DNA of 54,851 nucleotides from Rhizomicrobium sp. (lineage in GTDB: Bacteria; Pseudomonadota; Alphaproteobacteria; Micropepsales; Micropepsaceae). A program made the position numbers and the translations under genes. Shown piece by piece: positions 6,576 to 33,582 of the stretch. The stretch's first letter is position 1, and each line of letters begins with the position of its first letter. The notes under the pieces were generated by a model that did no database searches, was not told the DNA's origin, and saw only the letters and a list, made by a program, of their open reading frames with translations. Location of the stretch: assembly GCA_036502865.1 (NCBI GenBank), contig DASXXW010000097.1, positions 1 through 54,851 of the forward strand, in the 5' to 3' direction.

Positions 6576-6605
6576 TTGACATGGCGTTTTGTTCCCTATA
6601 GGTTC
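6576..6605 (+). promoter_or_regulatory. Sigma70-type promoter overlapped by an alphaproteobacterial LexA (SOS) box
   Basis: TTGACA (6576-6581), 17-nt spacer, TAGGTT (6599-6604); GTTC-CCTATAG-GTTC (6591-6605) fits GTTC-N7-GTTC; RBS GAGAGG at 6627-6632. Confidence 0.72.
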
Positions 6606-6636
6606 TTGAACATTGATAAGAACGTTGAGAGGCTGA

Positions 6637-7683
6637 ATGAGCCAATTGTTCAAGCTGGATCAGAACCCGGAAGGGCCTGGATTGCGCTGCGATAGCAACG
6701 GATTGTTCCTGGGCAAAGATGCGCTTCTGCGCCGGCCTCCGGACGGAAGTTTTGAGGCGCTCTCAGACCCAGAGCTTCAAGCGATTTTCGCCGGGATGTG
6801 CGGCGATGAAGGTGGTTGGGCGAGTCGTATCCGCAGCGTCAAGCTCGTCGCTGACGCCTTGAACAAGGGCGAGGTTGCGCGCGCTATGATAGCGGCCGTG
6901 CTCATGCGCCTGCCCGAGCCCGGCAACTCGATCTACGTCGACGACGACAATGAACTGCTCGCGAAGGCCGGCTTTAATCCCGATGAATCGCGTAACGAGC
7001 GGGGACAATGGACGAACGGTGCGGAAGGCAATGCAGACAATCAGTCAGATGACGTTCGGCTCGCCTACGCGGGCCTAAGCGATGTCTCCACCGATCCTGC
7101 GGCGCAAGCCGTGGCGAGAGCTGCCGAATCCCATCAAATAACCGACGCTTATCGCGCTGCCCGAGAGCCGACGACGGCTGATATGGCAAGTTTTCGCCCC
7201 GCGCATTACAAGGAGGCCCAACAGCTTGCGGCCAAATTGGGGCACGGAGCGACGGCGCAGGAATTTCTTGCGTTGAGCAGTGTCGAATCCAAGTGGGGCA
7301 TAAGTTTCGCGGCCCTAATCGCCGCAAATTTCTTTGGCGCCCACAACAGTCCGAACGGACCATTTCCCGGTCAAATCGGTACGTATGTTTCGTCCGGAAT
7401 CAAAGATGTCCCCGGCCATCTGGAAAACTCCTGGCTGCCCCCCAACAACCCGAAGAATCCTGTTCAGAACCTTGCACAGTTTTCGCAGGGAAACGGTCGT
7501 GGTGGCCACGCTGCTGAGGCCAGAGGTTCTTCAAGCATACGGTGGCAATTATTCCGATCCGGCGGTGTTTTTTGCCGCAGTTCACAACAATGGGTGGGCG
7601 GAGGGCGTCCAAGGCGACTATGTTCATACGATGCTTCAAAGAATCAGACACTTCAGAACGGAAAGGGAAAGATAGTTCGATGA
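6637..7683 (+). CDS. Putative polymorphic toxin with a C-terminal GH73/glucosaminidase-like muramidase domain; probably frameshifted near 7490-7500
   Basis: N-terminal region ending KAGFNPDESRNERGQWT; LALSSVESKWG...AANFFGAH resembles the GH73 ExxWG/NxFG core; the +1 frame after ~7495 reads DPAVFFAAVHNNGWAEGVQGDYVHTMLQRI to TAG at 7675. Confidence 0.55.
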   Translation: MSQLFKLDQNPEGPGLRCDSNGLFLGKDALLRRPPDGSFEALSDPELQAIFAGMCGDEGGWASRIRSVKLVADALNKGEVARAMIAAVLMRLPEPGNSIYVDDDNELLAKAGFNPDESRNERGQWTNGAEGNADNQSDDVRLAYAGLSDVSTDPAAQAVARAAESHQITDAYRAAREPTTADMASFRPAHYKEAQQLAAKLGHGATAQEFLALSSVESKWGISFAALIAANFFGAHNSPNGPFPGQIGTYVSSGIKDVPGHLENSWLPPNNPKNPVQNLAQFSQGNGRGGHAAEARGSSSIRWQLFRSGGVFCRSSQQWVGGGRPRRLCSYDASKNQTLQNGKGKIVR

Positions 7684-8141
7684 GAAGGATTCGGATGTTG
7701 CTGTTAAGTTTTGCAGCGTCATTTGCTGTTATGAGCGGAATTGGGGGTGCCATGTCTGCACCCCCACGATCGGGCGAGATCACCTTGGACGACGCTGTGT
7801 CGCTTGTGAACCTCGTCGCTCGACACCGGATCGCGCGCGTGAAGCATCGCGGTGTTATTTCGATCGAAGGAGTTGGTCCCAATGCGGAGCCCGGATTTTA
7901 TTCGTTTCAAGCCCGCGGGTGGTCGCCCGGGCCGGGAAGCGCGCTCATCGGAAATTTCTCCGTTGACAGGCATACAGCAGCGGTGTGGAGCGAGGACTCA
8001 TGTGAAGTTATAATGTTCACTTCGCTCAGAGAACTGCAAAACAAGATTTTGCGACGGGCCGGAATCGATTCTGCCATGCGCGCTCATAACCGGCTGCCCG
8101 GCCTCTGTGACTTTAGCAAGTTCCCTGAAGGGTTGCGTTGA
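7680..8141 (+). CDS. Exported hypothetical protein, candidate cognate immunity protein
   Basis: ATG at 7680; signal-peptide-like MRRIRMLLLSFAASFAVMSGIGGAMSA; 153 aa, two Cys in the mature part; directly follows the toxin-like gene. Confidence 0.55.
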   Translation: MRRIRMLLLSFAASFAVMSGIGGAMSAPPRSGEITLDDAVSLVNLVARHRIARVKHRGVISIEGVGPNAEPGFYSFQARGWSPGPGSALIGNFSVDRHTAAVWSEDSCEVIMFTSLRELQNKILRRAGIDSAMRAHNRLPGLCDFSKFPEGLR

Positions 8142-32739: not shown

Positions 32740-33582
32740 ATGGCGGCGCTTACGCATGTCGAAAGCCATTTCCGGTTCGGTGAAAACTGGGCCGAATTTG
32801 CTCACAATGTGGATCGCGACCGTATCGACCAGGCGCGGCGCGATCTTGCGAGGTTGATCGGTAAAGAAAACCTTTCCGGGTTGACGTTTCTGGATATCGG
32901 AAGCGGTTCCGGAATTCATTCTCTCGCCGCGTTGCAATTGGGCGCCACGGTGACGGCCATCGATATCGATCCCGAATCGGTAGCGACGACGAAGGGCATG
33001 CTCGAACGTTTTGCCGCCAATGCACCCTGGTGCGCCCGTTTGGCCAGCATATTCAATCTGGAACCGGCGAGCTTCGGCCGCTTCGATATCGTGTATTCCT
33101 GGGGTGTCCTTCACCACACCGGCGCAATGCTCGATGCGATCCGCGCCGCTGCAGGTTTGGTGAAAGACGATGGCGTTTTCTGCGTGGCGCTTTACGGGCA
33201 AACGGCGCTCTGCGGCTTGTGGCGTTGGGAAAAGCGTCTTTACAGTCGTGCTCCCGGTTGGATGCAACGCGCCCTGCAAAAGCTTTATGTAAGCCTGTTC
33301 TGGTTGTTGCAGTCTGCGCGAGGGGCGCGGCGCGGGCGCTTTTTCAGTCTTCGGGAACACGTTCAGAACTACATGCAGCGCCGAGGCATGAACTTTTACA
33401 CCGACGTGCATGACTGGCTTGGCGGATATCCCTATGAATCGATATCGCCCGAGAAGCTTCGCGATTTCATGCGGCAATTGGGTTTCGTGGAGCAGCGCTC
33501 ATTCATTTTGCCGGGCGTCCGGCACGGGCTGCTCGGCTCCGGCTGCGACGAGTATGTGTTTGTGAAGCGGGCTACCCGTTAG
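32740..33582 (+). CDS. Class I SAM-dependent methyltransferase (polysaccharide-locus type)
   Basis: FRFGENW, LDIGSGSG, YSWGVLHHTG, DWLGGYPYE. Confidence 0.9.
   Translation: MAALTHVESHFRFGENWAEFAHNVDRDRIDQARRDLARLIGKENLSGLTFLDIGSGSGIHSLAALQLGATVTAIDIDPESVATTKGMLERFAANAPWCARLASIFNLEPASFGRFDIVYSWGVLHHTGAMLDAIRAAAGLVKDDGVFCVALYGQTALCGLWRWEKRLYSRAPGWMQRALQKLYVSLFWLLQSARGARRGRFFSLREHVQNYMQRRGMNFYTDVHDWLGGYPYESISPEKLRDFMRQLGFVEQRSFILPGVRHGLLGSGCDEYVFVKRATR

Follow-up and report, generated by a model that had tools for sequence, protein, structure and literature searches.

A LexA-boxed polymorphic toxin-immunity family of Alphaproteobacteria and its putative link to phage heads

How might a toxin gene with no recognisable secretion domain, lying between housekeeping genes, come to serve a purpose outside its own cell? 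This question is raised by a two-gene cassette at positions 6576-8141 of a 54,851-nucleotide stretch of Rhizomicrobium sp. DNA (hereafter the window; all features described below lie on its forward strand). The cassette is flanked by a RidA-family gene and a spermidine synthase gene, which agrees with the original prediction of a unit unrelated to its neighbours, and its GC content (approximately 53-58%) is mostly below the 59% of the genome. A promoter is predicted from the sequence at 6576-6604, with a -35 element TTGACA (6576-6581), a 17-nt spacer and a -10 element TAGGTT (6599-6604), and a LexA (SOS) box, GTTC-N7-GTTC, covers the -10 element at 6591-6605; both were located where they had been described. 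A consensus promoter scan called 0 sites at the cassette promoter. Taken alone, the two GTTC-N7-GTTC matches in the window are at chance level (1.6 ± 1.4 in shuffled sequences), and the box at the cassette is credible because it is conserved in homologues, not because of its frequency in the window. The other match, at 33355-33369, seemingly lies within coding sequence and is probably due to chance.

The same motif precedes the lexA (C35:4597) and recA (C131:205) genes of the cassette's own genome, in keeping with its proposed role as the alphaproteobacterial LexA box, and it also fits the LexA consensus that PMC13384398 gives for Caulobacter. LexA boxes had also been predicted upstream of homologues, and we found them: an exact box occurs within 120 nt upstream of 22 of the 38 distinct family loci (16 of 20 within the same genus) and of 20 of the 23 loci in a second bacterial family, two of which overlap the 38-locus set, as against 13 of 1,743 ordinary ORFs; kin loci in these counts are non-independent. 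Nearly all of the boxes at family loci lie at -46 to -64. Moreover, a T[TGA]GAC hexamer is found within 20 nt 5′ of the box in 17 of the 22 boxed loci, compared with 5 of 196 box-strand cases genome-wide, and in 11 boxed loci the gap between hexamer and box is exactly 9 nt, as in the window copy. Both elements have been kept despite the divergence of the N-terminal domains of boxed relatives, which are just 27-65% identical to that of the window copy. The box is present in most stand-alone copies and absent from the copies inside phage gene clusters (0/5); no GTTC box was found at the five copies in genome G489 or at the two in G412. Among the G489 copies, the stand-alone loci L033 and L037/L182 lack the box, and two have an upstream palindrome, ACACC-N5-GGTGT, which is possibly a different operator. 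In the cassette's genome (G000), further boxes lie upstream of genes at C31:3679, C38:3983, C185:10515 and C220:3040, which we take to resemble a class II ribonucleotide reductase, DnaE, a radical-SAM repair protein and an endonuclease III-like gene.

What would the boxed promoter express? Gene 1 is an ORF of 348 aa (6637-7683), the first 97 residues of which (6637-6927) form an unnamed domain comprising a small beta part and three helices, as judged by alignment and an AF2 model (pLDDT 83). When residues 1-130 were used as the query, 56 proteins matched among 374 candidates, and a 17-row profile of the domain matched 1,593 clusters (50% identity), of which 950 reached E≤1e-10. On this sequence evidence, the first ~127 residues of gene 1 are the constant region of a large unnamed family. 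The original prediction had described an N-terminal delivery module that could not be matched to Rhs, CdiA, PAAR, LXG or colicin, and this description stands: searches of Pfam, PHROG, NCBIfam and PDB sequences gave no match for the domain, nor did it match a viral fold, and Foldseek comparison of its AF2 model with PDB and BFVD gave nothing at E≤0.001 (best VIA Z 4.3), a weak or absent fold match in a model not being proof of a new fold. The MuF domain was absent from all 17 of the N-domains scanned. A match to RNase M5 (E 0.013) was judged to be due to chance, and a relationship to the small gene that follows the putative capsid gene described below was dropped at an hhalign probability of 1-2%. 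Structural neighbours of the domain in the Atlas are likewise unnamed N-termini, which are attached to Glucosaminidase, AHH, CdiA-EC869 and REase-5 clusters.

The distribution of the family is patchy and multi-copy. Carriers make up 6 of 151 genomes of the cassette's own bacterial family, with 1-7 matches apiece, 9 of the 131 second-family genomes and, under shallow scoring, 4 of 400 other genomes of the class; 8 of the 9 homologue loci with named records are in Rhizomicrobium and Roseiarcus MAGs. Decay is common: of the 19 copies from the same genus that could be assessed, inspection showed 9 to be broken or reduced to remnants, the window copy among them. A second copy in the cassette's genome (L006, G000:C279:2467-3538) is intact, encoding 343 aa with a nuclease-like tip unlike that of the window and an acidic tail; it has a LexA box of its own and is followed by a gene encoding 257 aa.

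Downstream of the N-domain, gene 1 continues with a closing motif, KAGFNPDESRNERGQWT, at aa 110-126, an Ala-rich linker (7015-7170) that is common to paralogues bearing different tips, and the signature E217-S-K-W-G...NFFG. The modular layout that had been proposed, from N-region through closing motif and linker to an ExxWG...NFFG domain, was thus recovered, but the final ~60 residues of the ORF are out of frame owing to a frameshift and short deletion near 7495 that had been missed. The 5′ part of the tip (7171-7494), which includes the candidate catalytic residue E217, is 72% identical to the homologue P0004, and its 3′ part continues in another reading frame (7493-7675; 77% identical to the P0004 end). 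Approximately seven residues common to all six intact homologues of the tip in the protein database are missing from gene 1, and the lost residues include positions invariant in 9/9 intact rows. Because no public contig spans 7222-7503, a real lesion and an assembly error are indistinguishable here; from the reading frames, the toxin in this genome is probably dead and the immunity gene intact.

Several comparisons suggest that the tip is a Tge2/GH73-like glucosaminidase, all of the matches being modest. P0004 matches Pfam Glucosaminidase at E 1e-4, below the cut-off, and a profile of tip homologues matches the LytB glucosaminidase (E 2e-4) and Tge2 (E 0.024). A model (pLDDT 64) of the homologue from viral locus L110 has as its top structural match 4KT3_A, which is Tge2 (Z 7.3, rmsd 4.1, 106 aligned), followed by two GH73 enzymes; a Foldseek search with the toxin model returned nothing significant. 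Gene 2 (7680-8141, 153 aa) is predicted to encode a Tgi2-like immunity protein with a signal peptide, matching 4KT3_B at E 6.9e-6 and Pfam T6SS_Tgi2PP at E 0.004, below the cut-off. As had been noted, it follows gene 1 immediately, its start overlapping the gene 1 stop as ATGA, and its N-terminus is hydrophobic. The proposed pairing of a peptidoglycan hydrolase with a periplasmic immunity protein is consistent with these predicted identities, and in L110 a gene 2 homologue (E 1e-10) accompanies the same toxin.

Downstream partners had been predicted for homologues in general. A small gene is usually next after family toxins, and similar tips have similar partners, for example in L005/L169 and L010/L019/L047; the most hydrophobic partner N-termini are those of window gene 2 and of the partners of L035, L036 and L037. 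An orphan immunity-like gene at L171:6804-7289, homologous to the partner of the HNH-tipped toxins of L005 and L169, lies between a terminase and a portal gene.

Do the tips vary on this constant region, as had also been predicted? The C-terminal parts of 162 family proteins form 72 clusters, a count that is too high because truncated copies are included, and clusters in the Atlas agree with this variety of tips on a constant N-domain. Pfam recognised 17 of the 132 C-termini scanned, mostly as nucleases (AHH in eight; HNH, LHH, CdiA-EC869 nuclease, DUF2380, lysozyme and glucosaminidase in one each; and three others). On a tree of 89 of the 183 N-domain cores, tip classes are clustered and non-monophyletic, requiring 30 changes as against a minimum of 9 and 56 after shuffling. 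Eight of ten tip classes either lack a single origin or occur on both sides of a 100/100 N-domain split, and the GH73-like class is represented on each side. Recombination appears to swap tips among family members, as expected of polymorphic toxins. The commonest tip, found in 27 of 162 C-termini (P0038-P0057 and others), is short and Cys-rich (NPYP...CVEEW...C.GQVS..CGG), has no Pfam match and is followed by TPR-like genes. P0123 has a metallopeptidase tip (Pfam ATLF, E 1e-12); judging by sequence motifs, we take the tip of L036 to be a cell-wall peptidase and that of L165 to be pesticin-like.

In the literature covered, we found no account of the N-domain, the motif or LexA-controlled host copies. 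We are highly confident that this LexA-boxed polymorphic toxin-immunity family is real and, apparently, undescribed.

How might such toxins be delivered? The closing motif suggests a link between N-domain toxins and phage head genes that the original prediction overlooked. In the window, L-A-K followed by F-N-P-x-E-x-R...G-x-W-T (6958-7014) constitutes a predicted prohead-protease site. Of 175 family proteins, 148 have a lysine at position -1 or -3 of the motif, as do 66 of 72 viral ORFs, the frequency of lysine being 3.7%, and in 141 family proteins the residue two places ahead of this lysine is L, M or I. A scan of viral contigs for the motif found 96 stretches and 85 distinct ORFs; 45 motif ORFs, chosen by eye and mostly among the longer, were scanned for domains, which revealed 16 portal fusions and 2 ORFs with MuF. 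Four of the 16 portal fusions bear an RNase or lytic transglycosylase tip recognised by Pfam. Two homologues of the window toxin have, in place of the N-domain, a short stub and the closing motif only, and in L110 two such stub-motif copies of the GH73-like toxin flank the Tgi2-like gene, 3′ of a tail-fibre-like gene. A comparable junction, L/F-x-K-[STA], stands at the start of the conserved part in 9/9 putative capsid proteins, a count read from the alignment (a script regex matched only 2/9), and several protease domains end with ELRKF. The putative capsid is so named by position only (phrog_13692, unknown function).

In the viral contigs L054-L149, many portals carry C-terminal toxin domains after a PRVPAG..GGQWT motif, and these often precede repeated cassettes in which a portal end or a stub bears a different tip; on their sequences, these portals appear to be a separate polymorphic toxin system.

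Some family genes lie within head gene clusters. In L181, the order is a portal fragment, a motif-toxin, its partner, a prohead protease, two N-domain toxins and a putative capsid gene; in L072, N-domain genes are found among head-tail genes; in L025, an N-domain gene lies ahead of a tail gene; and in L150, the terminase and portal genes are separated by a motif remnant. A direct viral scan with the N-domain found only two loci, both on one contig. No portal was found in the genome of the window copy.

The clusters of L171 (G145:C124), L172 (G053:C6) and L181 (G489:C40) are single-copy terminase-portal-protease-capsid-tail arrays among housekeeping genes, with a phrog_2662 portal, the phrog_13692 putative capsid and no replication module in the stretches read. 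Such a cluster, which may be a domesticated, GTA-like element, occurs in 13 of the 131 second-family genomes.

The putative capsid gene, single-copy wherever present, co-occurs with the toxins. It was found in 3 of 5 carriers (one a remnant) and 3 of 145 other genomes in the cassette's own family (Fisher p 3.5e-4), in 5 of 9 carriers (one motif-only) and 8 of 122 others in the second family (p 4.4e-4), and in 1 of 4 carriers and 4 of 396 others class-wide (p 0.049), these p values being overstated because the genomes are kin. The gene was not found in the window genome (85% complete), in the same-genus carriers G091 or G093 (100% complete), or in G548, G318, G355 or G412, and the copies in those carriers would consequently need an incoming helper or another route. 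Terminase co-occurrence was uninformative (4/4 carriers but 100/150 genomes), and the HK97-type capsid family PF05065 was found in 0/5 carriers.

From the sequences we can read a constant N-domain, swappable tips, adjacent partners, a kept box and -35 element, a motif shared with portals, and genes within head-tail clusters. We consider it an even chance that the family toxins are cargo of phage-like heads, with a prohead protease cutting after L-x-K. Weighing against this reading are the carriers without the putative capsid gene, the window genome among them, the lack of PHROG and viral-fold matches for the N-domain, and the yield of just two loci from the direct viral scan. DNA damage would lift LexA repression as resident or incoming phage-like elements assemble; the N-domain would serve as a head-targeting propeptide, which the protease would remove at an L/F-x-K type site like that at the end of the capsid leader; and the mature toxin, with the motif at its start, would be ejected into a target cell. 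With the window tip, a GH73-type enzyme would cut peptidoglycan while the periplasmic Tgi2-like protein shields kin. More tentatively, and with rather less than an even chance, soil Alphaproteobacteria might keep chromosomal, LexA-timed toxin cartridges that a leader of new fold directs to the proheads of one particular phage-like particle, resident or borrowed from an infecting phage, the virions delivering both cytoplasmic and cell-wall toxins; L-x-K plus PR..G-x-WT might then be a cleavage and ejection code shared by portal fusions, stubs and host cargo.

Other routes must be weighed against loading into heads. Colicin-type bacteriocins are encoded by a LexA-repressed toxin gene followed by its immunity gene, and they comprise nucleases as well as a muramidase. 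The stand-alone, LexA-boxed two-gene units without conserved neighbours, and the lack of the head-tail cluster in many carriers, would suit SOS-induced, lysis-released bacteriocins of this kind, with the N-domain and motif as a receptor or uptake module and the phage clusters as mere insertion hotspots. However, no lysis gene was seen beside the loci on inspection, and an outer-membrane uptake signal would not explain why the motif is also found on portals and short helical stubs; we regard this explanation as unlikely. The family resembles colicins in the LexA box over the promoter and the toxin-immunity gene order, and differs from them in giving no Pfam match to colicin domains and in its many paralogues per chromosome.

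The conserved L-x-K site, which is like the capsid junction, and the copies in cluster-free genomes could instead reflect intracellular defence, in which zymogens activated by the prohead protease of an infecting phage, or poisons of its virions, lead to abortive infection. Against such a role, a co-expressed immunity protein would block suicide, and the cell-wall hydrolase tips with signal-peptide partners (the window, L110 and L165) imply attack from outside the cytoplasm; it seems to us distinctly improbable. Scarcely different in its low probability is a secretion machine unrelated to phages, whether type IV or of a kind still to be described, for which the N-domain would be the recognition signal. 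The homology of tip and immunity protein to the type VI pair Tge2/Tgi2 points in that direction, as does a VirD4-like gene in 2 of 5 carriers, the very two that hold the head-tail cluster, a coincidence that weighs against head loading. VirD4 is, however, absent from the other three, neither VipB (four of the five carriers being 100% complete) nor a contractile sheath was found in any of the five (0/5 each), and the phage-head context is strong. That the loci are decayed prophage debris without present function is very improbable: the broken or remnant same-genus copies, that of the window included, are what decay would leave, but the box and -35 element hold their fixed spacing across the diverged N-domains and in the second family, and many copies are intact.

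Of the systems already described, MuF toxins come closest (PMC3482391, PMC5576092). They share with the present family a constant N-terminal part, a variable tip, downstream immunity and proposed head loading, the last put forward in PMC5576092 as a hypothesis. In contrast, the family's N-domain lacks MuF, most of its copies stand alone under a host LexA box, and its tips include cell-wall hydrolases with signal-peptide partners, whereas cytoplasmic targets are expected for MuF toxins, 96% of whose genes are prophage-linked (PMC5576092). The portal adjacency of MuF genes within prophages is not seen for the window copy, but some relatives do sit in head clusters. Effector domains (ART, Nudix, 2H) fused to portals and presumed to be head-packaged are also described (PMC9503650); they resemble our portal fusions in that union, and the portion of that paper available to us does not mention toxin-immunity pairs, the family motif or host orphan copies. 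The internal head proteins of T4 (PMC3012670) and SPN3US (PMC10052503) likewise combine one conserved leader, cut off after targeting to proheads, with diverse cargo, the removable propeptides of SPN3US being 111-254 aa (PMC10052503); unlike them, our family has a predicted lysine site and host-encoded toxic cargo, and no sequence or fold link between the two was found. Finally, 4KT3 is the Tge2/Tgi2 complex of Pseudomonas protegens (PMC4832377), to which the window pair is alike in its GH73-like tip and gene 2 match and unlike in that no T6SS was found in five carriers and that an unrelated N-domain precedes the tip in the same protein.

Few delivery modules of polymorphic toxins are on record, and to these is added an unnamed putative trafficking domain that spans more than 1,500 sequence clusters and lacks a fold match, and which should be usable for mining many unannotated toxin tips. 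The idea of MuF-type head delivery becomes directly testable with this family, which offers a candidate protease and capsid together with a predicted cleavage site and a predicted inducing signal. If host genes do load heads under SOS control, lysogens or infected cells would arm their own virions, linking prophage induction to bacterial warfare and placing virus particles under host control as weapons against neighbouring bacteria, and the leader could also be put to use in loading capsids with proteins of choice. We also observed, at L173:13281-15433 (G091:C80), a stand-alone pair of small and large terminase genes with an exact LexA box upstream; a lone pair is also found in L176.
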